A stretch of DNA of 35,542 nt from a virus (taxonomy: Duplodnaviria > Heunggongvirae > Uroviricota > Caudoviricetes): IMG/VR virus record IMGVR_UViG_2667528074_000007, one strand, 5' to 3'. Position numbers and translations under genes: made by a program. Every line of letters begins with the position of its first letter. Positions within the stretch are counted from its first letter, which is position 1. The notes under the pieces are model-generated. The model saw only the letters and a list, made by a program, of their open reading frames with translations. It was not told the DNA's origin and made no database searches. Positions 5,302-35,542 of the stretch are shown here, piece after piece.

Positions 5302-5310
5302 TCCGAAAAT

Positions 5311-5336
5311 AAAAAAGCCACCTATTAGAAGGTGGC
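5311..5336 (-). terminator. Rho-independent terminator downstream of the 176-aa moron gene
   Basis: Plus strand reads AAAAAA-GCCACC-TATTAGAA-GGTGGC; on the minus strand this is a 6-bp GC stem followed by a U-tract, 21 nt after the stop at 5357. Confidence 0.5.
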
Positions 5337-5356
5337 CTTGTAATGAATTTTATTAA

Positions 5357-5887
5357 TTAGCGAGTCAGAAACAACGAATCTTTATACTTTTGCTGTTGTT
5401 CATTTAAATACTTAGCTGTTTCATCGCTGGCAAATGGAAATATTACCGTATTTTTAGGCATGGTAATTTCTTTTTTGTCCAGCGTCAGAGTAAACATAGG
5501 AACATACTGAGCAGAGTAACGCACCGCAGAAACGAGCTCTAGTTTAGACTCTTCAATAACACTTAAATTATCCAGGCTAACTTTCTCTTCATCTTTTTTC
5601 TTTGACGCATTTAAAGTTTTTATTACTTTATTTAATTTCTCCTGAAAATCCTCCTTAAAGTTTTCAGGATTGCCGTCGACAACAAGAATCTGTTCACCCT
5701 GATTATCTGGAAAAATAATCTTTGTACTTATCAATTTATTTTCTTTATAAACATCACCAAGTTTTATGGCTCCTCCAGATAACTGAATAATATGTTCATC
5801 TTTAAAGGAGATGTTGCCAGAGATTATGAGAGATGAAAAAATAGCCGCTGCTCCAAGAATTACACTTGCTGTGATATAGCCTTTCAT
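5357..5887 (-). CDS. Hypothetical exported or membrane-anchored protein (moron inside the tail cluster)
   Basis: 176-aa ORF with hydrophobic N-terminus MKGYITASVILGAAAIFSSLIISG; markedly AT-rich compared with flanking tail genes; own terminator; inserted between tape measure and DNA circulation genes. Confidence 0.6.
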   Translation of the reverse strand: MKGYITASVILGAAAIFSSLIISGNISFKDEHIIQLSGGAIKLGDVYKENKLISTKIIFPDNQGEQILVVDGNPENFKEDFQEKLNKVIKTLNASKKKDEEKVSLDNLSVIEESKLELVSAVRYSAQYVPMFTLTLDKKEITMPKNTVIFPFASDETAKYLNEQQQKYKDSLFLTR

Positions 5888-15540: not shown

Positions 15541-17274
15541 TTAAAGCGAGCGGATCCCATAGGACTCAATGTGGTCAGACAGCGTGTCTTCTTTCTCGTA
15601 CAGCATGGCTCTGCCAACCGCCATAATCAGCGCAACTGCACCGTCAATTTTGTTTTCCGCCTGCTCTTTGACGGGTTTCACCACATCATCGTTACCCGGA
15701 ATGGTTTTGCCGACCACATTGCCGATACACCAGGTCATGATGGGATTGCCATCATGATGAAAGCGCCCCGATTCAATTGCCGCTTCCAGCTCTTTCATCG
15801 GGTCGGACATGTTGGTGTAGTTCTGAATGATAGTGACGGGATTCAGGTCTTCATCAGCAAGGTCATGTGACAACCCGGTCGCCCCGAAGGGGTCGATGGG
15901 TGACTCACTGACCGGGCTGATTTTGTTCGCCGCTTTGGCCTCCTCGAGGATGTAGCGATAATCCACTTCCGCACCATCGGTAACGGTCAGAACGCCCATT
16001 TCCACCCATTTCTGAAAGCGTTCGGCTGTCCGGCGATCTTCATTTTTCTCGACGCTGTACACCGTGTCATACGGTACCCAGAAGCGCGGAGCCACACTGT
16101 AGTAATGCGTTTTACCGTCAATCTCGCGGGTATAAAGTCGCGCCATGCTGTTCATATCCAGTTTACGCGCCAGGTCAAAGGCCAGAATGCACGGCTGCCC
16201 CTCGAATTGCTCAAGAGTCAGTGATTTATCCTCGCAGCTCTGCCAGCTCACCAGGTTGAAATACGCCGAACGCGCCGACACCCAGATATTGAGGTGTTTT
16301 GTTTTAAAGACGTTTGCCAGACGGGCGTTATTTTTCGCACGCTGTTGCTGACTTAACAAAAACTCACGGTAAACCGACACCCCGATATTCGGGTTGGCTT
16401 TTTCCAGCACCTGTGGGTTGGTCCAGTCGTCACCTTCGTCAACGGTATAGATGATCCCGAACAGTTCATCGTTGGGTACCGAACCGTTGAGCATCTCGAT
16501 AACTTCCCGCCGTTTGTCGTAGCACGGCCCCTCAATGTTGTACCCGGCAGTAGTAATGGCCCACATCAGTGGCTGACGTCGCGCCCCCATCCCGGTAAGC
16601 ATCGTGGTGTAAAGCGCATCGGTGGCGTGCTCGTGATATTCATCCACCACCGCACAGTGGGGTGATGATCCATCACCGGGGTTACCGATCAGCGGTTCAA
16701 ACCGCGCGCCATCCTCCGGACGGTTCATGTTTGAGGCGTTAACCTCAATCCCGAACGCTTCCGTCAGCATGGGTGTGCGTTTACACATCAGTCGCGCCGG
16801 GCGAAAGACTTCCCACGCCTGTTTCTCTGTCGTGGCACCGGAATACACTTCCGCGCCAAACTCGTTATCACAGGCAAAACAATACAGGGCGACACCGGCA
16901 GAGATTGCCGATTTGCCGTTCTTACGGGGGATTTCGGTATACACCTCACGGAAGCGGCGCAGCCGGGAGCCTTTATTGACCCAGCCAAACGCGCAGCAGA
17001 TCACAAAGAGCTGCCACGGCTCCAGCGTGATGGGCATCCTCTTAAATGCCCACTCACCCTTGGTGTGCGGCAACAGCTGAATAAATTTGGCGGCCCGTTC
17101 AGCCAGGTCCTTGTCGAAGCGGTAACGAAACGACTTACTTTTTTCCGCCATCAGGTCATCAAGATGGCGCTGGCAGGCCTGAATCACAAACTGGCAGGCC
17201 ACAATCTTTCCCCGCACGACATCACGGGCATACTGATTGGCAGCATTTACGTTGGGGTAAGATTTCCGGCTCAT
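15541..17274 (-). CDS. Terminase large subunit
   Basis: 577-aa ORF following the small terminase subunit with 4-nt overlap. Confidence 0.9.
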
Positions 17275-17774
17275 GATTCGATGATTTTCAGAAACGGGTT
17301 AGTGGCTTTCTTCTGCCCCGCCAGGCCTATCAGACGCTGGCGGCTGCTGGGGTCGAGTCCGAGCATTGCCCCCGTGCTGCTCATCTCGGACTCCTGTTCT
17401 TTCTTGGCGGTCAGCTCCGGATTTTTGACCATGCCACCCATTGCACCGGTGATGGTGTTGCCCTGTCTGGCAATATTTTTCACGGCACGCCGCCAGAACT
17501 CGTAGGCCACGCACCACCGCTCAAGCACCGCGAGGTCAGTCACGCACAGCAGGCCCTGACCGCAGAGTTCTTTGGTTGTCAGTTGCCACATGATCGTGGC
17601 GAGAGGGAGATCTTCTTCAGCGAACCACTCCGGTGGCTCAACACCTTTGATGGGCGTAAAAACAGGTTCATCTTTATTCAGGGCTCGCTTGCCGGGGTTT
17701 CCGGCCAGCGCCTTGCGCGCCGTTGGCTTGGGGCGACGCCCGGAACGCCCCGCCGTTCCAGCCATATGCGGCAC
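17271..17774 (-). CDS. Terminase small subunit (P27 family)
   Basis: 167-aa ORF with basic N-terminus [30 protein letters not shown], immediately upstream of the large subunit. Confidence 0.75.
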
Positions 17775-17890
17775 TCCTGGTTAAATTTCATTTTTCGCGG
17801 GTATAAAAAAACGATGGGGCGGGCAGTCCGGAAGACGTCAGGTCACAGGGATTTGACCCGCCCCTCCCCTCAGACAGTTGAGAATTATTA

Positions 17891-18241
17891 TCACTTTAAC
17901 CGTTCACGGGCCGTCTTCGCCTTATGGCACGGCCAGCACAGACTCTGCAGATTACTGTCAGCATCAGTGCCGCCATGCGCTTTAGGGATGATGTGGTCAA
18001 CAGTTTTCGCCTCACGCACCACACCAGAACGCAGACATAACTGACACAGGCCTTTGTCACGCTTCAGGACACGCGCGCGGATACAGTCCCACTTCGAACC
18101 GTAGCCGCGCTGATGACGGGATTGTCCAGGTTTGTATTGCTTCCAGCCTTCGCTTTTGTGGCTTTCGCAATAGCCTGACGGGTCAGTGGTGGTATGGCGG
18201 CAGCCGCGAACACGGCAGGCTTTTGGTGTGCGTGGTGGCAT
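17891..18241 (-). CDS. HNH endonuclease (packaging-associated)
   Basis: 116-aa ORF with Cys pairs and HIIPKAHGG...CWPCH, next to the terminase genes. Confidence 0.8.
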   Translation of the reverse strand: MPPRTPKACRVRGCRHTTTDPSGYCESHKSEGWKQYKPGQSRHQRGYGSKWDCIRARVLKRDKGLCQLCLRSGVVREAKTVDHIIPKAHGGTDADSNLQSLCWPCHKAKTARERLK

Positions 18242-18333
18242 TATCCGTCCTTCGGTGATGTAGCTGCTTCTGTTGGGTTCATAGTTGAAATCCTGTTACG
18301 CCATAGCAATGTATCTGCCATCATAATGGCAAT

Positions 18334-18357
18334 AAAAAAGCCCCGCGATTGCGGGGC
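18334..18357 (-). terminator. Rho-independent terminator after the 133-aa moron gene
   Basis: Plus strand AAAAAA-GCCCCGC-GATT-GCGGGGC; on the minus strand a 7-bp GC stem followed by a U-tract, 19 nt after the stop at 18376. Confidence 0.5.
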
Positions 18358-18375
18358 TGATGGTTATATAAAATA

Positions 18376-18777
18376 TTAGCCAATTAAGTCGTCAATTTTT
18401 TTCTGAATATAACCATCCAGCAAACGCCTTGAAACGTCAACTAATGTTCCAATGCTTGCATCTTTAAAGCCGGTCTTGAGAGAATTCCAAACCTCTTTAT
18501 TCCTGAGAGCTTCAAGGAAGTCATGACCGCTTGAAGTTAATCGTAACGGTATAACGAACCATGATCCTCCATCAGCAGCCTCAGAGAAACCAAACCCATA
18601 CTTGCCGTCTGTTCTAGCAATTAGTTGACGATCAGCCAATAAACGCATATGGAATAAAAATTCATCGGTGCTGTAGTCATACCCAGCCAGCTGCAGCTGC
18701 TTTATATCAGTATGCGGCTCTTCAGACGCCTCGAAAGCTTCCAAAAGACCTTTCAAATACTCGTGATCTATTTTCAT
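18376..18777 (-). CDS. Hypothetical protein in AT-rich accessory cassette
   Basis: 133-aa ORF (MKIDHEYLKGLLEAFEASEEPHTDIKQ...), low-GC, own terminator, between Rz/Rz1 and the HNH gene. Confidence 0.5.
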   Translation of the reverse strand: MKIDHEYLKGLLEAFEASEEPHTDIKQLQLAGYDYSTDEFLFHMRLLADRQLIARTDGKYGFGFSEAADGGSWFVIPLRLTSSGHDFLEALRNKEVWNSLKTGFKDASIGTLVDVSRRLLDGYIQKKIDDLIG

Positions 18778-18851
18778 AACATTCCCTTTTATGAATGAGG
18801 GAATAATTTAACATTAAACTAGGCAATTGATGAATACTTGGCGTAATGTCG

Positions 18852-19046
18852 CTAGTGGTCGAGTTGCAATACACCGTGATTCAGTAACTCTAAATAAGCG
18901 ATGAGCCCGGCATAAACGGGGATAAACTCACAATCATCTTCGAATTCTGGGATTATTCCGGTTGCGATGGTGTATTGAGGCTGGCTATCTTCCTTCGCGA
19001 AGGATGCAAGGTCTTCAAACTGCTTAGCTGTAAGAACCACTGTCAT
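18852..19046 (-). CDS. Hypothetical small acidic protein in the same accessory cassette
   Basis: 64-aa ORF immediately upstream of the 133-aa gene, AT-rich. Confidence 0.4.
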   Translation of the reverse strand: MTVVLTAKQFEDLASFAKEDSQPQYTIATGIIPEFEDDCEFIPVYAGLIAYLELLNHGVLQLDH

Positions 19047-19069
19047 ACCTCTGTCGTTAAAAAGCCTCG

Positions 19070-19327
19070 CTATTGCGAGGTTCGAGATTGCTCAATCGTT
19101 CGGATGTCCGCTTTATCTCTGTTACACTGCCCCAGCGCCAACAACAAACTGACATTCAAATCCAAACTGCCTCCATAGGTCAGCGGCTCAGGAATAGCTG
19201 GTTGCAGTGTTTCAGTGGTCAGATTCGCCGGTAATGGCACCGCTGGAACTGGCACGTAAACTGTCCGCGTACTTCCGCAACCGGTCAGCAGCGGCAGCAG
19301 GCACAGCACGTGAAGCACAATCATCAT
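19070..19327 (-). CDS. Rz1-like outer-membrane spanin lipoprotein
   Basis: Alternate-frame ORF overlapping the 3' part of Rz, starting MMIVLHVLCLLPLLTGCGS (signal peptide plus LTGC lipobox) and Pro-rich thereafter; extends past the Rz stop. Confidence 0.55.
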   Translation of the reverse strand: MMIVLHVLCLLPLLTGCGSTRTVYVPVPAVPLPANLTTETLQPAIPEPLTYGGSLDLNVSLLLALGQCNRDKADIRTIEQSRTSQ

Positions 19328-19604
19328 CCGCAACAGCCATTTTGATATCTTCCTGGGTTCTCTGTGACTCCAGTGCGATCTGCTGTTTTGCATGCTGGTT
19401 AGCCTCCAGTACTGTATTGACGATTTGCAGTGATTGCAGGACGTTATTGGTAATGGCAGTTGCCGATTTGGCATTTTGTACAGCCTCATCAGCACGTTTC
19501 TTTTCGTGCTGATATTTGCTGTAGTAGTAGTTGGCTGACCAGATGAAAGAACTGACGACAGTAAAAAGGAAAGCAGCGATAACCAGCTTATAGCTCAACT
19601 TCAT
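19212..19604 (-). CDS. Rz-like inner-membrane spanin
   Basis: 130-aa ORF with N-terminal transmembrane segment and coiled-coil-like body, overlapping the endolysin stop. Confidence 0.7.
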   Translation of the reverse strand: MKLSYKLVIAAFLFTVVSSFIWSANYYYSKYQHEKKRADEAVQNAKSATAITNNVLQSLQIVNTVLEANQHAKQQIALESQRTQEDIKMAVADDDCASRAVPAAAADRLRKYADSLRASSSGAITGESDH

Positions 19605-20064
19605 TTACCACCCCACCAGCCTCTTTAAATCGGGCAATCAGGTCACCGATTTTATGTTCATACTGACCGTAACCTGCACCAGGTAACGACGCCCAGATAT
19701 TGCTGCACCGGTCGATTGCCTGACGGATATCGCCGCGATCAATCATCGGTAAAGCGCCACGTTCTTTAATCTGCTGCAATGCCACTGCGTCCTGGCTTTT
19801 GGGGGAGAAGTCTTTCAGGCCAAGCTGCTTACGGTAAGCATCCCACCAGCGTGAAAGAAGCTGATAACGTCCGGCGGCTGTTGATTTGAGTTTGGGGTTT
19901 AGCGTGACAAGTTTGCGAGGGTGATCGGAGTAATCAGTAAATAGCTCTCCGCCTACAATGACATCATAACCATGATTTCTGGTTTTCTGCCGTCCGTTAT
20001 CCGTTCCTTCTGACCATGCCACCATATCGAGGAAAGCTTTACGCTGGGAATTTAGTACCTGCAT
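19588..20064 (-). CDS. Endolysin, lambda R-type lytic transglycosylase
   Basis: 158-aa protein nearly identical, from memory, to lambda R (NQRKAFLDM.AWSEGTDNGRQKTRNHGYDVIVGGELFTDYSDHPRKLVTLNPKLKST). Confidence 0.9.
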   Translation of the reverse strand: MQVLNSQRKAFLDMVAWSEGTDNGRQKTRNHGYDVIVGGELFTDYSDHPRKLVTLNPKLKSTAAGRYQLLSRWWDAYRKQLGLKDFSPKSQDAVALQQIKERGALPMIDRGDIRQAIDRCSNIWASLPGAGYGQYEHKIGDLIARFKEAGGVVNEVEL

Positions 20065-20067
20065 AAA

Positions 20068-20394
20068 TTACTCCTTAGAGCCACCAAACTTGTTACCGAT
20101 TACTCTCATTGCAGCCCCACGAATAGCATCAACACCGATCAACCCCACCCCACCACCAATGGCAACAGATAGTGATTTAGGCCATCCGACATACTCAAGA
20201 GCGGATGCAAAAGTCAGCGTCAGAGCGCCACAGAGTAGAATTTCGAGTGTTTTTCGCTTCCAGCCGCCACCACCGCCAAAATAGGCAATGCGCAAACCAG
20301 CCATAACAATCGACATAATCACTGCGCCCAGCGGTGTGTCTCCACGCCACCAGCTCTGGACCAACTCCAGCCAGGTATTTGGGTTATGAGGCAT
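20068..20394 (-). CDS. Holin, lambda S-like
   Basis: 108-aa ORF with transmembrane segments and charged C-terminus, immediately upstream of the endolysin; resembles lambda S in its central region. Confidence 0.7.
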   Translation of the reverse strand: MPHNPNTWLELVQSWWRGDTPLGAVIMSIVMAGLRIAYFGGGGGWKRKTLEILLCGALTLTFASALEYVGWPKSLSVAIGGGVGLIGVDAIRGAAMRVIGNKFGGSKE

Positions 20395-20546
20395 TTGTAG
20401 TTATCTCTCACCTCGCCGATACAAGAGGTGCAAATTGAGGGAGTACCACGAACCGCAAATCAGAAGCGGAAACGTAAAAGAAGCCGAGCCAATGGATAAG
20501 AGCTAGATAGACCAAGCCCAACGAATACCAAAGCCCAGAAACGACA

Positions 20547-20568
20547 AAACCCGCTCGACGGCGGGTTT
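20547..20568 (-). terminator. Hairpin upstream of the holin, possible tR'-like terminator of the late leader
   Basis: Plus strand AAACCCGC-TCGACG-GCGGGTTT (8-bp stem); on the minus strand it is followed by TGTCGTTTCT, about 150 nt before the holin start. Confidence 0.35.
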
Positions 20569-20676
20569 AAGCTGTGTGGCGAAGCAACCACTCTTAACAG
20601 ATTACAAGAATTTTTGCGTACGCGTTAATTTTTTTGTATTTTTCTCATTACACAATATATAAACCCTATGTAAAAA

Positions 20677-21960
20677 ATGACAGCAGAAATAGCCGTATTT
20701 AACAAGACCGCAGTAGCTTTAGCCGCAGATTCAGCTGTAACAATTTCTGGAGGCGGCAAACATAAAATCTATAATGGCGCTGAAAAGCTTTTCGCTCTAA
20801 CTAAACATCATCCTGTAGGTTTGATGGTATATGGAACTGGTGATCTCTGCACAGCTCCATGGGAGCTTATCATCAAGGCTTATAGAAAGGATTTAGGCTC
20901 TAAATGTTTTGACTCTTTGGAGGAATATGCTGAGGATTTCTTCAATTATCTACAGTCGGCTAAATCAATCATCACACCAGGTATGCGTGAGGCTCATCTT
21001 TATCACTTCCTGAGCGAGATTGTATTCAGCATGCTTGTTGATGCTTTTTCTGAAGGTCTCGAACCAACATATTTCGTTAACTTCAATAAGAATCAATTTA
21101 TTACAGACCTTACAAATTATTGCAACGATCTCCTTACAAAATTATCTGATATTAATTACTTTGATGGTTTTACTCCGGATGATGAACAAGCAGCCCAAAC
21201 CTATGCTTCATCAGTTGCCCAACGCATCATTGCTCAAAAGTTTAGTGACTTTGATCCAATATCCATAACTCCACAGTTGACAAGAGTAGTTAGTGATGTT
21301 TTGGCAGCTATGATATGCAAGCAAAGTGATATCGGTTCCGTCTCTGGGATTGTAATTGCAGGTTATGGCGATAAAGACTATTACCCTAAAGTATTATCAT
21401 ATGAAGTTTGTGGCTTCTTTAATGATAAAATCAGGAAAACTACAGATGCTGACAAGTGCTGCATCACTCCTAATTGCGGCGTGACTCCTTTTGCGCAAGA
21501 GGATGAAGTTTCTGCTTTCATGCAAGGAGCTAGTTCACATCTTATCCAAAATCTTCATGCTGAGTATCAACGTTCTATCGTCGATTTACTTGATGGTATT
21601 GATTCAGTAATCACAGATTTGGTGCCTACTTCAGATATCGAAGGAGCTAAGGATGCTATAGTTGATGTAGTGCGCAGAACTGTTTCCGATTGCAAGGGGC
21701 GTATTGATAGCTTTGTCCGAGAAAACTATGTTGACAAAGTCGTAAATATGATCGAGTTTTTACCCAAGCAAGATTTAGCTTATATGGCTGAATCATTAGT
21801 AAATTTAACCGCTTTCAAGCGCAAGGTCTCCGATGATACTGAAACAGTGGGAGGCCCCATAGATGTTGCAATCATTTCTAAAGCTGATGGTTTTATCTGG
21901 GTTAAACGTAAGCACTATTTTGCAAAAGAACTGAACCATCACTACTTTTCGCGGCCATAG
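20677..21960 (+). CDS. Hypothetical 427-aa protein, possible HslV/proteasome-like Ntn-hydrolase fold; accessory gene between Q and the lysis cassette
   Basis: Only long plus-strand ORF in a minus-strand late region; AT-rich. N-terminus MTAEIAVFNKTAVALAADSAVTISGGGKHK...VGLMVYGTGD parallels HslV [22 protein letters not shown]...AGFAGGTAD as recalled; later GIVIAGYGD and VGGPIDVAIISKADGFIWV resemble C-terminal strands of that fold. No search run. Confidence 0.7.
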   Translation: MTAEIAVFNKTAVALAADSAVTISGGGKHKIYNGAEKLFALTKHHPVGLMVYGTGDLCTAPWELIIKAYRKDLGSKCFDSLEEYAEDFFNYLQSAKSIITPGMREAHLYHFLSEIVFSMLVDAFSEGLEPTYFVNFNKNQFITDLTNYCNDLLTKLSDINYFDGFTPDDEQAAQTYASSVAQRIIAQKFSDFDPISITPQLTRVVSDVLAAMICKQSDIGSVSGIVIAGYGDKDYYPKVLSYEVCGFFNDKIRKTTDADKCCITPNCGVTPFAQEDEVSAFMQGASSHLIQNLHAEYQRSIVDLLDGIDSVITDLVPTSDIEGAKDAIVDVVRRTVSDCKGRIDSFVRENYVDKVVNMIEFLPKQDLAYMAESLVNLTAFKRKVSDDTETVGGPIDVAIISKADGFIWVKRKHYFAKELNHHYFSRP

Positions 21961-21983
21961 CAACAAATAGACAAGGGGAACAC

Positions 21984-22133
21984 ATGTCACTTAAGCAAGC
22001 CTATGAAAGAACTCAACCCAAAAGCATCAATGATTTCTTTCAGTTGAGTACTTCTGGAAAGAGTCGACGCACTGTAACAAGCCAATCCAACTTCTTTACT
22101 AAATTGAACAAAACATTACCTGCACAATCCTAA
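21984..22133 (+). CDS. Small ORF (49 aa) immediately downstream of the 427-aa gene
   Basis: ATG at 21984 preceded by AAGGGGA about 7 nt upstream; translates MSLKQAYERTQPKSINDFFQLSTSGKSRRTVTSQSNFFTKLNKTLPAQS; stop abuts the terminator stem. Below the ORF-track cutoff. Confidence 0.3.
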   Translation: MSLKQAYERTQPKSINDFFQLSTSGKSRRTVTSQSNFFTKLNKTLPAQS

Positions 22134-22168
22134 AAAGTTAAAAGCCACTACGGTGGCTTTTAACTTTT
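22133..22168. terminator. Bidirectional terminator hairpin between the accessory cassette and Q
   Basis: Perfect 16-bp inverted repeat AAAAGTTAAAAGCCAC-TACG-GTGGCTTTTAACTTTT; the Q stop codon (22167..22169) lies inside the right arm. Confidence 0.6.
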
Positions 22169-22532
22169 ATTTACATGCCATAACGCTCGTAATCCCCTCT
22201 ACAAAACCAATTGCAGTTTGCAATTCCTTTCTAATCGTGCCATCTGAACACCTTCTCTTCTTGGCAATAGTGCGTAATGAGATACCAATAACAAAGTGAG
22301 CTATGATGAGCTCATATTCCTCTGGTTTATACTTTCGCAACCGAGCCACACAACCGTCTATTATGATGCCCTCATCATCATCGCACTGAATCCGGGACTT
22401 TCTGCCATGAGGTAAAAGCCCCTTGAAGCCTGCTGCTATAGGTTGCCAATCCACACTACTGTTATCTGCTGCAGCCCATGCTCCCCAGCGGTCCAATACT
22501 TCATACATATCACGCATCAACCTTCTCCACAA
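22167..22532 (-). CDS. Putative late antiterminator Q
   Basis: 121-aa ORF at the Q position of a lambdoid map, after DUF968 and before the lysis region; C-terminal part looks HTH-like. Family assignment is from memory. Confidence 0.55.
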   Translation of the reverse strand: MWRRLMRDMYEVLDRWGAWAAADNSSVDWQPIAAGFKGLLPHGRKSRIQCDDDEGIIIDGCVARLRKYKPEEYELIIAHFVIGISLRTIAKKRRCSDGTIRKELQTAIGFVEGITSVMACK

Positions 22533-22534
22533 AA

Positions 22535-23530
22535 TCAGGCCAGCACGCCAATTGCCAGCGCACGATCGATAAAACGAAATATCAGCTCCAGCTGGGAGCC
22601 ATACTTCTCTTCAAATGCCACGGTATCCACATGCAACTCGTCGTGATGCTTTCTGCACAAAGGCAAAACAAAGAGGTCATGCGCTTTTGTTCCCATTCCA
22701 CCCTGACCGTGGCCTATCAGGTGGTGGGGATCATCAGCAGGTTTTCCACAACATGCGCACGGCTGCGTCTTAACCCATCGCGTGTACTTTTCATTAACCC
22801 AGCGGCGACGTTTGGGGCGTAACATAAAAGACTCCGGCGACTCCGGCTCCACTTTCAGCGCCAGCACCTTTTTCGCCTTATCCTGGATGATGCTGGTGGC
22901 AGGAACCGAAGGCACAAGGTCACTTTCCCGGGTAACAGACGGCACAACAGGCTTCGGTAATCTCAGTGCCTTACGGGCTGCACTTTCCGGTAAGGCATCC
23001 GCCAGATCATTACGAATCAGCCACCAGCACAGTTCCGGTATTGTCACAACGTGACTGTCATCAAAACCGAGATCCCGACGCACAACAGACAACACCCAGC
23101 GGGCACAGTTATCCGTTGCCATTGATTCCAGCCGTTCCGTGAACTGATCGCGCAGCTGGTTATCGCAGTGCCAGCACAGACGGATTGCGCCCGGAGCGTG
23201 TCGCATTGTGGTCATGTTCTCGCTGTGCCAGTCGGAATGAGGCCACTGGCAGCCTTTTTCACGAAGTAACCAGCTTTCAAGACATTCCACGCCACCAGCA
23301 CGACGGATCACTGCCTCATTGCGGAACACGGCCTGAACGGCAGGATCATCCGCCAGCGGTTGTGATGCCGCCGGAACGGCACCACTGGCGAAAGATGAAT
23401 AACGTTCCGGCTCAGGCTCCAGCAGGACACGCCCCTGCATAAACAGGGGCATCAGCTCTGAACCTGGTCTGAACAATACGATCCCCATACGCGGGGCAAT
23501 TTCAGGGGTCAGTAGTGCTCTCACGGTCAC
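22535..23530 (-). CDS. DUF968-like nin-region protein with C-terminal Cys/His motif
   Basis: 331-aa ORF; C-terminal CACCGKPADDPHHLIGHGQGG...LCRKHHDELH suggests a zinc-binding HNH-like motif. Confidence 0.55.
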   Translation of the reverse strand: MTVRALLTPEIAPRMGIVLFRPGSELMPLFMQGRVLLEPEPERYSSFASGAVPAASQPLADDPAVQAVFRNEAVIRRAGGVECLESWLLREKGCQWPHSDWHSENMTTMRHAPGAIRLCWHCDNQLRDQFTERLESMATDNCARWVLSVVRRDLGFDDSHVVTIPELCWWLIRNDLADALPESAARKALRLPKPVVPSVTRESDLVPSVPATSIIQDKAKKVLALKVEPESPESFMLRPKRRRWVNEKYTRWVKTQPCACCGKPADDPHHLIGHGQGGMGTKAHDLFVLPLCRKHHDELHVDTVAFEEKYGSQLELIFRFIDRALAIGVLA

Positions 23531-23531
23531 C

Positions 23532-24362
23532 TCAATGAACGGTATCGAGCAGCTTTAACAGCTCAGGGAATCGGGATTCGAAGAAATGCGGCTGCGTCTC
23601 GCGCGGATTTGCAGGACTGGTGATGTTCTTGCCGAACATGCAGCCTTTCGCCGTCAGCGACCAGAATTTTTTGATGTTGTTAATCGCGGTACGGCTGTAT
23701 CGTTCGCGCTGCTCGACGATCCCCAGTTTCACCATCTGGTGATATGCCTGATTAGCCGTCAGGCGGATACCATACTGTTTCAGCAGTGCACTCAGTGACA
23801 GTGTCGGGCGACTTGAGCCATCGTGTGCATCAGCAGGAGCATCAATGGCATAGCGCGGTGCCAGATTCGGTAAGCCAACAGCCTCCTGAAGTTTCTGACA
23901 GGCACCAAGCACAGATGAGTTAGACAGGTTTAACTCCCTGCGCATAAAGTCCAGCAGAATCACACCAGCCTGCATCTTGTCAGCAGCCTGCCCGGATAAT
24001 TTTTCCGGTGCGCTGGTTACCATGTCGAAAGTACGGATCACCTTCAGATGGAATGACGGGCTGATCCACATTGCATAGGCATACACCAGTTCTTTGCAGA
24101 CATACGTCCCCTGGTTATTTCCGCCACGAATAACGTTAACTGGCTCTATATTGACCGAGTTGCAAATCTGCAACTCGCTTATTAAACGTTCAGTTTGCTC
24201 ATTGCGGAGCCAGAATGCAGGCTTATGCTTATCCAGAGAACCGGCAGCCCTGTGCAGATCGTTCAGGCTGTAACGCCCATAAGCATCACGACGAACTTCA
24301 ATACCATCAATGACCATCAGATTATTCATACTTCGTTTCTCCTCTTGATCAGGCGGCTGCAC
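23532..24362 (-). CDS. KilA-N domain protein (antirepressor-like)
   Basis: 276-aa ORF; N-terminal NLMVIDGIEVRRDAYGRYSLNDLHRAAG...KPAFWLRNEQ resembles the KilA-N DNA-binding domain. Confidence 0.6.
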   Translation of the reverse strand: MQPPDQEEKRSMNNLMVIDGIEVRRDAYGRYSLNDLHRAAGSLDKHKPAFWLRNEQTERLISELQICNSVNIEPVNVIRGGNNQGTYVCKELVYAYAMWISPSFHLKVIRTFDMVTSAPEKLSGQAADKMQAGVILLDFMRRELNLSNSSVLGACQKLQEAVGLPNLAPRYAIDAPADAHDGSSRPTLSLSALLKQYGIRLTANQAYHQMVKLGIVEQRERYSRTAINNIKKFWSLTAKGCMFGKNITSPANPRETQPHFFESRFPELLKLLDTVH

Positions 24363-24738
24363 CCGCCGTTTTCTCGTACTTACTGATAGTGATCTCGACC
24401 TTCCCTTCCGGGATAACCGGTCCCCACTCCACCAGCATTCTTTTCACCTGACTGTCGTCCTCCCACACACCCGCGTGGGTCAGGGCGTCAAACAGCGCCT
24501 TGTTATAGTTGTCCAGATCGCGGATCCGGTTATCCGGAGGAAACAACACGATCTCCACTGAAGCAGGTGCCGACGTTGGTTTCGGCAGACGACGTAACTG
24601 CTCAACTATTGCTGTGCACGCCGCACTCTGGAATTTTCGCCCCGCCGCGCTTATCAGGCTCTTACCAGCAAATGCCCCTTTGTTGGGGTGTCGCCAGTAG
24701 GTGTTCACGCTGGGTGGAAAAGGCAGGATCAGCTTCAT
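24349..24738 (-). CDS. rusA: Holliday junction resolvase RusA
   Basis: 129-aa protein; PFPPSVNTYWRH and DLDNYNKALFDALTHAGVWEDDSQV match RusA catalytic-region motifs. Confidence 0.85.
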   Translation of the reverse strand: MKLILPFPPSVNTYWRHPNKGAFAGKSLISAAGRKFQSAACTAIVEQLRRLPKPTSAPASVEIVLFPPDNRIRDLDNYNKALFDALTHAGVWEDDSQVKRMLVEWGPVIPEGKVEITISKYEKTAGAAA

Positions 24739-25061
24739 ACTTTCAGGCCCCTCTCATGTAACCAGTGGACTGCACGCAGCCTGGCGTTTTCCTCACCGGC
24801 AAGCAGTGCGCGGATAATCCCGACCGCCTCGCTGTCGTCGTCCTTCACCGCGGTATGAAGCGTTATCCCCCGGGCCACGCCACGCTTTATCGTGATGACG
24901 CCTTTTTTCTCCAGTGCACGAAGATGCTCTACCGCTGCATTCACTGAACGGTATCCCAGCATGGTTGCCACCTCCTGATTGGTTGGCGGAAAGCCACGCT
25001 CTTTCTGGTAAGAAATCAGCATATCCAGCACCTGCTGCTGGCATTGAGTTAACGTCGTCAT
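24735..25061 (-). CDS. LexA DNA-binding-domain-only protein (no S24 peptidase domain)
   Basis: 108-aa protein LTQCQQQVLDMLISYQKERGFPPTNQEVATMLGYRSVNAAVEHLRALEKKGVITIKRGVARGITL aligns with the LexA N-terminal winged helix as recalled ([55 protein letters not shown]); the ORF ends before any protease domain. Confidence 0.7.
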   Translation of the reverse strand: MTTLTQCQQQVLDMLISYQKERGFPPTNQEVATMLGYRSVNAAVEHLRALEKKGVITIKRGVARGITLHTAVKDDDSEAVGIIRALLAGEENARLRAVHWLHERGLKV

Positions 25062-25711
25062 GCCGCCATCTCCCTGACCAGTTTTTCCGCCTGCTGGCGA
25101 ACCTGCGCCAGAAAGGCCTCACCACATGCCTCAAGTTCATCGCGCCCGATGTAGCTGATTGCCGGTCCCTTCCAGGTCTTATCGAAAACAGCAATAGCAC
25201 CAGCGAAGAACGCTCCTGTCGGCACCTGCTTCTCGTCTTTCGGGATAAACCAGACAGGCAGTTCAAAACCAATACGCCCGCGAATAAAAGCAATATGATC
25301 TGCATCTTCCGGCCACCACACTTCGCTGGTGGCAGCTTTGATCAGGAAAACATAGCGCCCGCCTTTATCACGCATGGCACTGGCATGCTTCATGATGTAA
25401 CGCATGCCGGTGATGTATTGCCCCTCATGCTGACTGGCGCGGCTGTATGGAGGATTTCCAAAGGCAGCACCTTTAAGCTCCGCAAGACGTTCTGACCAGT
25501 CATGCGCCAGCGCGTTGTCTTCCGCCGTGTAATACGCGGCGCATTTGGCGTTATCACCGTCAGTAAACAGATCCAGAACAAACGGGCCAAACAGGGTGTT
25601 AATTCCCCAGAAAATGTTGTCCGGTGTGCGCCACTGATCGCCCACTTCCTTCAGTTCATGGGCTGGTTTGTTTCGCAACTCCACCAGCGCCTGGCAATAT
25701 TTATTACTCAT
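25058..25711 (-). CDS. DNA N6-adenine methyltransferase (phage Dam-like)
   Basis: Contains the FGNPPYS motif; start set at internal Met (MSNKYCQ) to give a 1-nt ATGA overlap with the upstream gene. ORF track shows 25058..25744. Confidence 0.75.
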   Translation of the reverse strand: MSNKYCQALVELRNKPAHELKEVGDQWRTPDNIFWGINTLFGPFVLDLFTDGDNAKCAAYYTAEDNALAHDWSERLAELKGAAFGNPPYSRASQHEGQYITGMRYIMKHASAMRDKGGRYVFLIKAATSEVWWPEDADHIAFIRGRIGFELPVWFIPKDEKQVPTGAFFAGAIAVFDKTWKGPAISYIGRDELEACGEAFLAQVRQQAEKLVREMAA

Positions 25712-26205
25712 TAAGCCCCCACGTAATTCCCTGACAGATACCACTCATCACCCGATACAGCGCGCTTGCTGCTTTTCCGTAAGCACCGCTCACGACGCGC
25801 CAGAAAATTGTTTCGTTCTGGCTGGGAATGGCTTTCACGGAATGCCGCCATCCACACCGTTGCAGCACGACGGTATAAGCCCCTGGACTCCAGTTCTTCA
25901 GCCTGGCGGGTCAGGCACAAAATCACCCGTGGATCGTTAGTGCCGACATAGAAATTGCGCACAGGTCTGGTTTCTCGAACTGGTTGTGGTTCCGGTTCCT
26001 GCGCTCTCTCAGTCAGGCGCGGGAAATGTCTGCGTGTATCTCCTTCACAACGGTGAGCCACACGCCCACTCTGACGTAACTTGCTTGCTGACTGCAGAAC
26101 GCGCTGCCGTGAGTAACCTGCAAAAGCATCCGCAATGTCTCCGGAAGTACATCCCGGATGGGCTTCAATGAATTTCTGAACTTCATTCAAAAGACTCATG
26201 ATCAC
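25711..26205 (-). CDS. Hypothetical protein, replication-region (YfdN-like by size and position)
   Basis: 164-aa ORF directly downstream of the O-like initiator, overlapping the methylase start. Confidence 0.5.
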   Translation of the reverse strand: MIMSLLNEVQKFIEAHPGCTSGDIADAFAGYSRQRVLQSASKLRQSGRVAHRCEGDTRRHFPRLTERAQEPEPQPVRETRPVRNFYVGTNDPRVILCLTRQAEELESRGLYRRAATVWMAAFRESHSQPERNNFLARRERCLRKSSKRAVSGDEWYLSGNYVGA

Positions 26206-27143
26206 CCCCTGAATCCTGCCGGGATCTGGCTGTAGTCCACGTTGTCGTAACTGGATTTGAAGTACGGGTCTTCGCGTTTTTCGGTGTACGTGCTGACGGA
26301 CGGTGATAAGCGCAGGGAAAGCTCATCCCATTTTTCCCGCAACTTCGACGGGCTGAGCACGTTACGGCACCAGAACGGATCGCGGCTGACGCGGCTGTAC
26401 ATCTCGCAGATTTGTTTGTGAGTACGACCATCCTGCACACACATCAGGCGAATTTCGTTTGCCCAGGCTGTCCAGTTCGGTTCTTTGGGACGAACCACCT
26501 CGCCGTCACATTCGGCGGCTTGCTCGTACAGGGCGATGATTTTTTTCCAGAGCCACTGTGCGCAGGTCAAATCATCCTGCGTTCCCCACTGGCGCTTTTT
26601 AGGGCTGAATACAACCGCATCAGGATGGCGAGTTAAAAAATCCTGTTCATCCGTCTGCGTGTCCGGTTGCGAAGCGTCCGGACGAGAAGGTTTTTTATCT
26701 GACGGATCATGTTTTGATTTTACTGACGGATCCCCGCCAGATTCTGACGGGTGAAAACCCGCTTTTTTGCCAGATTTCGACGCATCAAATTTTGACGGGT
26801 CAGATTTTGATGCGTCAGATTTTGACGGGTCAGAATCTGACAGTTGAGAAAATGCCGCTGCCTGAAGCTTCGCAACGTTAAGCTGATAAACATTCGACGC
26901 ATTGCGGTTACCCTGGCGACGCGCCTTACGCGTTAACCAGCCTTCTGCTTCCAGCCGTGCGATAGCCGTCCTGACGGTACTCATCCCCGCGCCAATCTGA
27001 CGGGCAATAGTTTCAATTGATGGCCAGCACACACCTTCGTCATTACTGAAATCAGCCAGGCGGGCCATAATTGCCACGCTGGATAATTTCATGCCTGATG
27101 CAGCGCAACCATCCCATACATAGCCGGTTAATTTAGTGCTCAT
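26202..27143 (-). CDS. Replication initiator, lambda O-like, with iterons inside the coding sequence
   Basis: 313-aa ORF with N-terminal HTH-like region; central low-complexity DPSKSDASKSDPSKFDASKS is encoded by the iteron array. Confidence 0.7.
   Translation of the reverse strand: MSTKLTGYVWDGCAASGMKLSSVAIMARLADFSNDEGVCWPSIETIARQIGAGMSTVRTAIARLEAEGWLTRKARRQGNRNASNVYQLNVAKLQAAAFSQLSDSDPSKSDASKSDPSKFDASKSGKKAGFHPSESGGDPSVKSKHDPSDKKPSRPDASQPDTQTDEQDFLTRHPDAVVFSPKKRQWGTQDDLTCAQWLWKKIIALYEQAAECDGEVVRPKEPNWTAWANEIRLMCVQDGRTHKQICEMYSRVSRDPFWCRNVLSPSKLREKWDELSLRLSPSVSTYTEKREDPYFKSSYDNVDYSQIPAGFRG
26695..26843. repeat. Iteron array, putative replication origin inside the O-like gene
   Basis: About eight direct repeats related to ATTTTGACGGGTCAG, with 15-bp periodicity in 26774..26843 and more degenerate copies in 26695..26754. 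Confidence 0.65.
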
Positions 27144-32694: not shown

Positions 32695-33044
32695 TGGAGC
32701 CATACAGCCTCACACTCGATGAGGCCTGTCATTTTCTCAAGATATCCAGACCGACTGCCATTAACTGGATACGCACAGGGCGTCTTCAGGCAACACGCAA
32801 AGATCCCACTAAGAATAAATCTCCTTACCTCACAACACGACAAGCCTGCATTGCGGCTCTTCAGTCTCCGCTGCATACTGTCCAGGTGAGCGCGGGTGAT
32901 GGCATAACAGAGGAAAGAAAATGTCACTCTTCCGCAGAGGTGAAATATGGTACGCCAGTTTCACATTGCCGAACGGTAAAAGATTTAAACAGTCTCTTGG
33001 AACAAAGGACAAAAGGCAGGCGACAGAACTCCATGACAAGCTAA
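32694..33044 (+). CDS. Excisionase-like HTH protein (xis)
   Basis: ATG at 32694 with GAGGTG upstream; [35 protein letters not shown] reads as an excisionase-type HTH; frame overlaps int by about 41 codons. Confidence 0.5.
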
Positions 33045-34084
33045 AGGCTGAAGCATGGCGGGTCAGCAAACTTGGTGAAATACCTGATATAACGTTCGAG
33101 GAAGCGTGTGTCAGGTGGCTTGAAGAGAAAGCACATAAAAAATCACTGGACGATGACAAAAGCCGGATCGGATTCTGGCTTCAACATTTCGCAGGAATGC
33201 AACTAAGAGACATTACTGAATCAAAAATTTATTCAGCAATGCAGAAAATGACGAACCGGCGTCATGAGGAAAACTGGAGACTCAGGGCAGAAGCATGCAG
33301 AAAAAAAGGGAAACCTGTTCCAGAATACACGCCAAAACCAGCGTCCGTTGCAACGAAGGCTACGCATCTTTCATTTATAAAGGCCCTACTAAGAGCCGCA
33401 GAGCGTGAATGGAAAATGCTGGATAAGGCACCAATTATTAAAGTGCCTCAACCAAAGAATAAACGGATCCGCTGGCTGGAGCCCCATGAAGCACAAAGGC
33501 TGATTGATGAATGTCCGGAGCCATTAAAGTCTGTTGTTGAATTTGCACTGGCAACAGGCTTAAGACGCTCGAACATCATCAACCTTGAATGGCAACAAAT
33601 AGACATGCAGCGCCGGGTGGCATGGATAAACCCGGAAGAGAGTAAATCAAACCGCGCAATTGGCGTTGCGCTGAATGATACTGCATGTCGCGTATTGAAA
33701 AAACAAATCGGGAATCATCACCGTTGGGTATTTGTGTACAAGGAAAGCTGTACCAAACCAGACGGAACGAAAGCGCCAACAGTAAGGAAGATGCGGTATG
33801 ACGCAAACACAGCCTGGAAAGCGGCGCTGAGACGGGCTGGTATTGATGATTTCAGATTTCACGACTTGAGACACACCTGGGCAAGTTGGCTGGTTCAAGC
33901 CGGAGTGCCGTTGTCAGTGTTACAGGAAATGGGAGGCTGGGAGTCTATCGAAATGGTTCGTCGATATGCTCACCTTGCACCTAATCACCTTACCGAACAC
34001 GCACGGCAAATAGACTCGATCCTGAACCCATCGGTCCCAAATTTGTCCCAGTCAAAAAATAAGGAAGGTACTAATGATGTGTAA
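32921..34084 (+). CDS. int: Tyrosine integrase
   Basis: 387-aa ORF; N-terminus [34 protein letters not shown] and C-terminal [39 protein letters not shown] (R/H-x-x-R/Y catalytic motifs); adjacent to a tRNA. Confidence 0.9.
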
Positions 34085-34288: not shown

Positions 34289-35542
34289 TTACGCACGAAT
34301 GGTGTAATCACCAATGCCGATCCACTTGTAAGTGGTCAGTGCTTCCAGCCCCATTGGGCCACGCGCGTGGAGTTTTTGTGTGCTTACCGCCACTTCCGCA
34401 CCCAGACCAAACTGGCCGCCGTCGGTAAAACGCGTAGAGGCGTTAACGTAAACAGCGGACGAATCCACTTCGTTAACAAAACGCTGGGCGTTGCGCATAT
34501 CGCGGGTCAGGATCGCATCGGAGTGTTGTGTGCCGTGTTCACGAATATGGGCGATGGCATCGTCAAGATCGCTGACGATTTTGACGTTCAAATCTAATGA
34601 CAGAAACTCATCGTCATACTCTTCGGCTTTAACAGCAACCACCTTCGCAGGGCCTGCCTGCAACTGCGCCAGTGCAGCTGCATCTGCGTGTAATGTCACG
34701 CCGCTTTCCGCCATTTGTTTGCTTAATGCGGGCAGGAAGCTATCGGCGATGTTTTTATTCACCAGCAACGTTTCAACCGTATTACATGTGCTCGGACGCT
34801 GAGTTTTCGCGTTGACGATCACTTTTAATGCTTCAGCGATCTCTACACTTTCATCAACGTAAATATGGCATACGCCTATACCACCTGTGATCACCGGGAT
34901 TGTCGACTGTTCACGGCACAGTTTATGCAAACCAGCGCCACCACGCGGGATCAGCATGTCGATGTATTTATCCATACGCAGCATTTCACTGACCAGCGCA
35001 CGGTCAGGATTATCAATCGCCTGCACGGCACCCGCCGGTAAGCCGCAGGATTTCAGGGCGTCCTGAATCACCGCCACCGTTGCAGCGTTAGTGCGACACG
35101 TTTCTTTGCCACCGCGCAGGATCACCGCATTACCGGTTTTCAGGCACAGCGAAGCGACATCAACCGTCACGTTCGGGCGCGCTTCATAAATCACGCCAAT
35201 AACCCCCAGCGGTACGCGACGACGCTCAAGACGCAGGCCGCTGTCCAGTACGCTGCCATCGATTACCTGCCCCACCGGATCGGCGAGGTTACACACCTGG
35301 CGCACATCATCGGCAATGCCTTTCAGCCGTGCGGGCGTCAGTGCCAGACGGTCAAGCATCGCTTCGCCAAGGCCATTGGCACGCGCGTCAGCAACATCCT
35401 GGGCGTTAGCGTTGAGGATGATTTCGCTTTGTGCTTCCAGTTCATCGGCGATTTTTTCCAGCACGCGATTTTTTTCGCGGCTGGAGAGTTGCGCTAATTT
35501 ATACGAGGCTTGCTTCGCGGCAATGCCCATTTGTTCCAGCAT
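34289..35542 (-). CDS. proA: Gamma-glutamyl phosphate reductase
   Basis: 417-aa ORF starting [38 protein letters not shown], recognised as E. coli ProA; the start codon lies at the last three bases of the window. Confidence 0.95.

Follow-up and report, generated by a model that had tools for sequence, protein, structure and literature searches.

A proteasome-type threonine hydrolase and a small partner protein as accessory cargo between Q and the lysis genes of a lambdoid prophage

The DNA analysed here, IMG/VR virus record IMGVR_UViG_2667528074_000007 (35,542 nucleotides; the window), is a prophage whose tail, head, terminase and lysis genes lie on the minus strand. Between the gene for the antiterminator Q and the lysis genes, it carries an AT-rich cassette (∼20625-22168) with two plus-strand genes that encode proteins of 427 and 49 amino acids (aa). 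On balance, we favour the view that this cassette forms a 'moron', an accessory operon of two genes that stands on its own within a lambdoid, SfII-like prophage, and that it provides the lysogen with a proteasome-family threonine protease for use in genetic conflict. Our limited preference for this explanation as a whole reflects parts of unequal firmness: that the 427-aa protein has the fold and family of proteasome-type N-terminal-threonine (Ntn) hydrolases is hardly in doubt, and a two-gene operon is very likely, while the chances of a defence or conflict role, as suggested by genomic context, are about even.

Results

Layout of the cassette

An earlier reading of the window from its letters alone (the sequence-only reading) had described a 427-aa open reading frame (ORF), a 49-aa ORF and a hairpin with a 16-bp stem in an AT-rich cassette. 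All three are present as described, and the N-terminal motifs of the 427-aa protein are as quoted there. The cassette comprises:

20625 to 20676, plus strand: AT-rich upstream region, presumed cassette promoter (read from the sequence)
20677 to 21960, plus strand: 427-aa ORF with ATG start, gene for the proteasome-like Ntn hydrolase (ORF call)
21973 to 21979, plus strand: Shine-Dalgarno sequence AAGGGGA of the 49-aa ORF (read from the sequence)
21984 to 22133, plus strand: 49-aa ORF with ATG start, basic Ser/Thr-rich partner protein (ORF call)
22133 to 22168, no strand assigned: hairpin of 16 perfect pairs and a 4-nt loop, candidate bidirectional intrinsic terminator

The 49-aa gene begins 23 nt 3' of the 427-aa gene. 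The hairpin (5' arm 22133-22148, loop 22149-22152, 3' arm 22153-22168) folds with a ΔG of -23.6 kcal/mol (z = -7.2; none of 200 shuffled sequences was equally stable) and shares bases with two stop codons, that of the 49-aa ORF and that of the convergent Q gene. Because A-tracts and T-tracts flank it on both sides, it is a plausible bidirectional terminator that would end cassette as well as Q transcripts. Relatives likewise have GC-core hairpins with T-runs after the small ORF, which argues for a transcription unit consisting of protease, peptide and terminator. The GC content is 37-40% across the cassette versus 50-57% in the flanks. Within the minus-strand block from 300 to 28000, the cassette provides the sole convincing long plus-strand gene, in agreement with the sequence-only reading; the remaining plus-strand ORFs are of 78-196 aa and overlap minus-strand genes.

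Upstream of the 427-aa gene lies a weak sigma-70-like pair, TTGTAT (20634-20639) and TATAAA (20658-20663), separated by an 18-nt spacer, together with TTTTTGTAT, which is semi-conserved among relatives. A consensus promoter scan gave no convincing cassette promoter or late promoter and did not report the TTGTAT/TATAAA pair, and no clear Shine-Dalgarno sequence precedes the ATG of the 427-aa gene. The cassette thus has the low GC content, the own terminator, the opposite strand and the alternative cargos in the same slot (see below) by which morons are recognized; an own promoter we infer.

Fold and active site of the 427-aa protein

An AlphaFold2 (AF2) model built from an alignment of 41 homologs (pLDDT 84.8, pTM 0.80) shows the four-layer alpha-beta-beta-alpha Ntn sandwich with helices H1-H4. 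Along the chain, strands S1-S4 lead into H1 (62-73) and H2 (81-94). Five helices (101-214) make up the first insert, after which come strands (223-271) and H3 (275-283); a pair of long helices (287-360) then separates H3 from H4 (364-386), and two strands and H5 complete the order. Two helical inserts, ∼190 residues together, interrupt the core: insert 1 (∼aa 97-216, ∼120 aa) after H1/H2 and insert 2 (∼aa 286-360, ∼75 aa) between H3 and H4. The single insert of roughly 150 residues proposed in the sequence-only reading is therefore replaced by two.

At the level of sequence, phmmer of the 427-aa protein against the PDB returned noise only, and a full-length profile reached an E-value of about 1.3. 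An insert-free profile of 30 diverse members, run against 177,635 PDB sequences, had the Thermoplasma beta subunit as its sole match (E 0.002). This alignment places T2 on Thr1, D18 on Glu17 and K37 on Lys33, a register that recurred in further searches; it also pairs VGGPIDVAIISKGDGF with SGGMIDVAVITRKDGY, and the GGPIDVA..I...DG block of the family with SGGMIDVAVITRKDG of the Thermoplasma protein. For the G48/G53 region and for AG[YF]G, which stands where GSG would be expected, the alignment to the Gly47 and Ser129 sites is only approximate, and the Ser169 equivalent, again in an approximate alignment, is Val391. The BFVD structure library held no full-length relative.

We propose Thr2, Asp18 and Lys37 as catalytic residues, at the positions of proteasome Thr1, Asp(Glu)17 and Lys33. 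The sequence-only reading had expected Thr2 and a Lys at 28-30 to fall on Thr1 and Lys33; this holds for Thr2, whereas the alignment gives K37 as the Lys33 equivalent. K28 is not conserved, and K30 is invariant yet aligned away from Lys33. Conservation was judged from the 41-homolog alignment (A1) and from 30 core-only sequences, with inserts removed, taken from genome-scan loci of many phyla and archaea (A4). M1, T2, D18, S19, K30 and K37 are invariant in both. In A1, the invariant positions comprise M1-T2-A3-E4, D18-S19, K30, N33, K37, AG[YF]G, FAQ..E and the C-terminal block ETVGGPIDVA.ISK.DGF.W..RKHYF. Among the complete genome-scan loci, L043 alone has Ser and all others have Thr next to the start Met (L060 is truncated by a crude ORF call). 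Thr2 thus comes right after Met in essentially all homologs, and the Thr1/Asp17/Lys33 equivalents are invariant. Methionine aminopeptidase specificity permits Met removal before a penultimate Thr, and the enzyme would in this way expose Thr2 as the nucleophile.

The same residues bear on the idea that the protein is a catalytically dead, proteasome-alpha-like scaffold, i.e. a pseudo-enzyme that only binds. The Thr after Met1 at all those loci except L043 and the invariance of Asp18 and Lys37 in bacteria and archaea speak against it, as does the fact that alpha subunits have N-terminal extensions instead; we give it very little credence. Thr directly after Met1, combined with the invariance of Asp18, Lys37 and further core residues, marks an active site that has been maintained.

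A large, uncharacterized family that very probably corresponds to PMI-4

A large protein database holds thousands of homologs of ∼427-435 aa, all annotated as 'hypothetical', and the single library match of the 427-aa protein is PHROG 5990 ('unknown function'). An exhaustive profile search yielded 6,020 clusters at 50% identity, of which 3,328 reached E ≤ 1e-30. All of the 150 top-scoring representatives are 417-457 aa long, and in nearly all of them position 1 of the profile is position 1 of the protein. A chance ORF was accordingly rejected, given more than 6,000 homologous clusters and purifying selection on the small ORF, and so was a fused multi-domain protein, in view of the uniform length of the top 150 representatives. 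Some distant members from Latescibacterota (L039, L041, L072) and Chloroflexota (L071) reach 468-473 aa by a C-terminal extension of ∼35 aa, inside which the downstream small ORF begins.

Fuchs, Alva and Lupas (2021; PMC8665760) catalogued 22 new families of proteasome homologs. Within the group that they call 'Proteasome homolog with Multiple Insertions' (PMI), PMI-3 and PMI-4 lack a propeptide and carry two insertions, a long one after H1/H2 and a second one that separates H3 from H4. PMI-4 is a large family (501 nr90 sequences, representative HDY66466.1) from Proteobacteria, Firmicutes, Actinobacteria, Bacteroidetes, PVC, Cyanobacteria, Euryarchaeota and phages (their Table 1). The 427-aa family shares with PMI-4 the lack of a propeptide, the two insertion sites, the Thr1/Asp17/Lys33-type residues, the absence of an AAA+ partner and the broad bacterial, euryarchaeal and phage distribution. 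Because architecture and distribution match this description, the window protein is very probably a PMI-4 member; its family has almost certainly been catalogued, and hence represents neither a new fold nor a new family. The earlier statement that no phage cargo of this kind had been characterized holds experimentally, whereas the family and its presence in phages have probably been catalogued (PMC8665760). The family as defined here differs from PMI-4 as described in its ∼6,000 clusters at 50% identity, its small downstream gene and its recurrent mobile cargo slots. Judging by the searchable literature, three findings are new: a small partner gene at nearly every locus, a much larger family, and the consistent placement in cargo slots.

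The sequence-only reading had likened the protein to HslV and proteasomes. An Ntn threonine hydrolase with Thr2 after Met stands; the protein is, however, nearer 20S beta and Anbu (MEROPS T1) than HslV. From 20S beta and Anbu it differs by low identity (∼13%, with no PF00227 match), by ∼190 extra helical residues in two inserts, by a Met-Thr start in place of an autocatalytically removed propeptide, by Tyr/Phe apparently replacing Ser129, and by the lack of an alpha-type partner. HslV (ClpQ) is compact (∼175 aa), free of inserts, and encoded with and activated by HslU, in contrast to a 427-aa protein with two inserts and no linked ATPase in 80 loci; the structural score to HslV is also below that to 20S beta. 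An HslV orthologue was rejected on grounds of size, the two inserts and the lack of an HslU-like ATPase among the neighbours.

A small partner gene follows the protease gene

The possibility that the 49-aa ORF encodes a partner was raised by the sequence-only reading and gains support from its conserved position and from selection on its sequence; it is a real, conserved partner gene. The protein is basic (8 K+R vs 2 D+E) and rich in Ser/Thr, and has two conserved motifs, LKQ[AS][YF].R.QPK.[IV].DFF and [NS][NS]FF..L. At least 13 distinct sequences of the window-type peptide, from the clade whose proteases are 60-98% identical to the window protein, keep frame, start codon and Shine-Dalgarno sequence (consensus M.LKQ[AS][YF].R.QPK.[IV].DFF ... 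[NS][NS]FF..L), and GGGG or AGGAGG stands 5-9 nt before the ATG in every relative of the clade. With pN of 0.13-0.19 vs pS of 0.73-0.87 (dN/dS 0.08-0.22 where computable), the window-type gene is under purifying selection.

The association extends across the family. We searched for small ORFs of 40-110 aa on the same strand with a start between -45 and +30 nt from the protease stop codon. The protease gene has such an ORF behind it, often overlapping its stop codon, at 75 of the 78 loci (96%); of the other genes with 150 aa or more at these loci, 173 of 652 do (27%; Fisher p = 4e-35). An iterated hidden Markov model (HMM) of the peptides (consensus ...KKKVYRSYEEFEKEYFPKS...DP..LGKKLAKESLERIRKKL) matched 48 diverse loci at E < 1e-3, every match lying immediately 3' of the protease gene, with no comparable matches elsewhere in 1.77 million six-frame residues. 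This main partner family is marked by the sharply conserved short motif EFEKxYFPKS. The sequence type of the small ORF changes with the protease clade: ELREWQKKFNPS...FSW is found in one gammaproteobacterial clade and MSLQQVVDNAYKALAAAKFP in another, and GFFNIP types accompany the viral clusters that lie furthest from the window protein (34-37% identity). No statistical link joins the window peptide to the main family, and we therefore claim positional equivalence and clade-wise conservation, not homology.

Apart from the small ORF, no neighbouring gene is conserved. Among ORFs of at least 70 aa in 80 loci (all major bacterial phyla and several archaea), no conserved neighbour was found, and there was no HslU-like or other AAA+ ATPase and no other large conserved neighbour. 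The reading of the protease as a lone gene, a product of the 70-aa minimum ORF length, was rejected when inspection of short ORFs revealed the small partner. Two Vibrio loci, from Vibrio sp. J1-1 (L005) and V. bivalvicida (L006), have no partner, and a terminator directly follows the protease stop codon; these variants could inform on function.

A small gene next to a protease gene could point to a toxin-antitoxin or addiction module, in which an unrestrained, harmful protease is neutralized by its small labile partner, so that the module stabilizes its element and any effect on phages (abortive infection) is secondary. The compact two-gene layout, a tiny, translationally linked partner that co-varies with the clade, HicAB neighbours in the same slot, and carriage by plasmids and satellites would all fit. 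Against it, the order of a large first and a small second gene and the sizes are atypical of type II systems, neither protein has a DNA-binding domain or a toxin-antitoxin family match (Pfam, NCBIfam, PADLOC), and the Vibrio loci with a protease alone argue against an obligatory antidote. We regard such a module as unlikely.

The partner also invites comparison with the archaeal protein ligase connectase, a monomeric, lid-gated proteasome homolog that acts on one conserved motif (PMC7980362). Both are proteasome homologs with an extra helical element, and connectase has a dedicated substrate recognized by a short motif (PMC7980362, PMC8665760); unlike connectase, the 427-aa protein shows neither the loss of H1/H2 nor the two-helix lid between S3 and S4. 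By analogy, connectase offers a helpful picture of the part that the small protein might play. With this precedent, the pair could be a cell-physiological enzyme outside any conflict, a sequence-specific protease or connectase-like ligase with the small protein as its dedicated substrate or cofactor, for instance in maturing or tagging peptides, and with phages carrying it as a passenger. The EFEKxYFPKS motif, the many homologs amid housekeeping genes in metagenome-assembled genomes (MAGs), archaea included, and the lack of an AAA+ partner at the loci speak for this alternative, which we judge rather unlikely overall.

The cassette occupies a cargo slot between Q and the lysis genes

On its two sides the slot is bounded by the following features:

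22167 to 22532, minus strand: antiterminator Q, convergent with the cassette (PF06530, E 1.6e-45; RefSeq annotation of a 98%-identical locus of enterotoxigenic Escherichia coli, ETEC)
20546 to 20624, minus strand: conserved lambdoid backbone element bordering the cargo slot, outside the cassette itself (terminator scan and alignments)
20068 to 20394, minus strand: class I holin (PF05106, E 7e-25; phrog_126 holin)

That the cassette is accessory cargo of the Q-to-lysis slot, as first proposed from the letters, is borne out by recurrence of the arrangement. In E. coli, 9 of 5,426 complete genomes carry the cassette (98% identity), all in prophages beside Q, and in prophages of Klebsiella (K. oxytoca, K. 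variicola), Serratia, Salmonella, Rahnella, Mangrovibacter and ETEC it likewise lies on the opposite strand between Q and the lysis genes. Its neighbour within the slot is HicAB or an orphan N6/N4 methyltransferase in Klebsiella, Serratia and Salmonella. The co-cargo in prophages of Klebsiella oxytoca and Salmonella (L085/L093, ∼5100-5800), Serratia (L088, 4660-5688) and ETEC (L001, 6431-7477) consists of HicAB toxin-antitoxin pairs or orphan N6/N4 DNA methyltransferases, together with BssS or tRNA genes. Cargo is thus stacked in modular fashion within the slot that Q and the lysis genes enclose.

Other phages carry other genes at this site. Shigella phage SfII has in the same slot and orientation the PADLOC candidate defence system PDC-M53; its genes SfII_50 and SfII_49 (annotated 'hypothetical'; L103 2781-4395, plus strand) match PDC-M53 A and B with E-values of 2e-32 and 3e-54. 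The slot of phage 434 holds nmpC, and those of SfII, mEp460 and 434 thus hold alternative cargos. PDC-M53 in SfII, HicAB, the orphan methyltransferases, nmpC in 434 and stx in Stx phages resemble the cassette in using the same slot, often on the opposite strand, with an own terminator, low GC content and boundaries formed by Q and the pre-holin element; they differ in encoding unrelated proteins, none of which is a proteasome-type enzyme. In sum, the Q-holin slot behaves like a hotspot for defence genes or morons.

The element next to the holin is non-coding, ∼75 nt long, and lies on the 5' side of the cassette, between Q-side cargo and holin, in every lambdoid locus. On the late strand it forms a hairpin (20568-20547) followed by the T-run TTTTGTCGTTT (terminator scan), and it carries the invariant TTTTTGCGTACGCGT, which holds the palindrome GCGTACGC. 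It matches SfII, SfIV, cdtI, 434 and lambda-like phages with 87-90% identity, just upstream of their holins. It also accompanies other cargo, in SfII, SfIV, mEp460, 434 and lambda-like isolates (aligned across 7 loci; SfII, L103 2601-2739; 434, L101 1501-1577; mEp460, L102 ∼4401), and its exact 14-mer adjoins cargo in 48 loci. Rfam contained no known RNA for 20300-22700.

The window and an ETEC prophage share only 20546-22515 (97%), i.e. the element, the cassette and Q. Such co-inheritance of Q and the element with the cargo between them is as expected if the element holds a Q-cognate late promoter leader and tR', and we regard the element as a candidate for this leader (qut/tR'). If it contains the late promoter, late transcripts would have their start downstream of the cassette, with no antisense passage across the two genes. 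The earlier suggestion of antisense late transcription is therefore doubtful, since a terminator-bearing element lies between cassette and holin; late transcription probably begins downstream of the cassette and does not cross it.

This bears on a possible benefit to the phage itself during lytic growth or induction, by counter-defence proteolysis of host proteins for defence or stress, or by tuning of lysis or late genes. The location between Q and the lysis genes, the co-directional gene in Providencia phage PSTRCR_117lys (same slot, same direction as the late genes) and the frequency of other proteasome homologs (PPH, AAH) in phages would favour it. Most lambdoid loci, in contrast, have the pair on the opposite strand with its own terminator, the late promoter is probably downstream, and the pair is also present in satellites, plasmids, restriction-modification (R-M) islands and non-phage chromosomal loci; such a role is improbable.

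The pair in other mobile elements

Beyond lambdoid prophages, the pair was found in Serratia marcescens after the primase of an integrase-AlpA-primase (VapE) island near fis/dusB (L095, 1414-7450), and in Vibrio parahaemolyticus, where an integrase and a complete type I R-M system directly adjoin it. The protease gene is the last large gene in seven Streptococcus satellite phages and the terminal gene of one Streptococcus prophage; in satellite phage Javan103 (L083, 9274-10653) and the six other Javan satellites, the pair is the terminal cargo of ∼10-kb elements. Satellite-type elements are known carriers of accessory or immune genes. Ten plasmids, five of them conjugative, carry the pair.

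In IMG/VR, 163 contigs encode a family member (40 clusters at 90% identity), and Q, CI-type repressors, antirepressors and holins are over-represented next to these genes; they mark the two classical regions of morons and superinfection exclusion. Integrases or transposases recur in ∼10 loci. Methyltransferase and R-M families are the commonest among 149 nearest neighbours, yet amount to 5-9 proteins only. Collectively, this context is suggestive, not proof, of a rare, horizontally mobile accessory module with the flavour of a defence island. The reading as cargo draws on low GC content, an own terminator, Q-lysis slots, immunity regions, satellites, plasmids, the R-M island and PDC-M53 in the same slot of SfII.

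Discussion

How the pair might act

The mature enzyme would be an active, substrate-selective protease or transpeptidase. Its inserts, which are modelled with confidence as a helical domain, may gate or shape the active site and would probably prevent a classical double-ring barrel; according to Fuchs et al., insertions in these two places may be incompatible with assembly into rings or double rings (PMC8665760). The small basic protein may dock through its short aromatic motifs and act as a regulator, a pseudo-substrate or inhibitor, a substrate or an adaptor. Expressed from its own promoter in the lysogen, the operon would serve genetic conflict, its likeliest role being protection of the lysogen against other phages by regulated proteolysis. 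More specifically, the pair could be an unrecognized two-component immune or conflict system in which a peptide of 45-70 aa, co-evolving with the Thr protease, restrains, targets or triggers it, a proposal that we offer tentatively as one possibility.

Several points weigh against a lysogen-expressed conflict operon with a proteasome-family protease. Sequence similarity to proteasomes is marginal, E 0.002 having been reached after insert removal alone. Neither protein is matched by a Pfam or NCBIfam model (for the 427-aa protein, no Pfam match at E ≤ 1, PF00227 included), and PADLOC-DB v2.0.0 has no match at E ≤ 1 for either. The cassette promoter is a weak guess from the consensus, and the co-directional Providencia gene indicates that lysogen-specific expression is not a rule. 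The window peptide gave no significant match to the main partner family (HMM and hhalign, E 0.23-0.72; hhalign E 0.23), and two Vibrio loci lack the partner. Many homolog loci in MAGs lie among ordinary genes, with defence-type neighbours in the minority. For their new families, Fuchs et al. reported no AAA+ partner and no genomic context suggestive of function, and they found no informative context for any of them (PMC8665760); searches of the full-text literature found no functional study of the family, the 2021 survey alone being relevant.

Proteasome-family enzymes are among the best-studied proteases. The present branch comprises ∼6,000 clusters with no Pfam or NCBIfam model and a 'hypothetical' annotation throughout, and the pair, in bacteria as well as archaea, behaves as exchangeable cargo carried by phages, satellites, plasmids and islands of defence type. 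The E. coli prophage version (∼1.6 kb) offers a genetically tractable setting in which an orphan family becomes a directly testable hypothesis. If the pair proved to be a defence system, it would introduce a new catalytic principle into bacterial immunity as the first such system on a proteasome fold. It would then also be an instance of the proteasome family being drawn into antiviral conflict in prokaryotes, and would offer a simple model of Ntn threonine protease regulation by inserts and small ligands. Were it instead a specific protease or ligase, biotechnological use might be possible, as with connectase.

The prophage around the cassette

Further features of the window are:

19588 to 20064, next gene after the holin: lambda-R-like lysozyme (ORF list)
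22535 to 23530, minus strand: DUF968/HNH-like protein (PF06147, E 5e-80), directly upstream of Q
32921 to 34084, plus strand: tyrosine integrase, adjoining host proA
34289 to 35542, minus strand: host proA, which places the prophage at a proA-adjacent attachment site

The proA-adjacent site is presumably the one used by SfII-type phages. Integration there is consistent with the 86-90% identity to Shigella phage SfII in the lysis region and at the start of Q (Q/DUF968 region). The DUF968-Q pair adjoins the cassette again in many relatives (L001, L085, L088, L090). One IMG/VR record, IMGVR_UViG_3300045988_128340 (L104), encodes a protease 100% identical to that of the window; it is 97-98% identical to window positions 16506-18242 and 19535-26942, differs around 18243-19534, and is probably a close relative of the window's phage.

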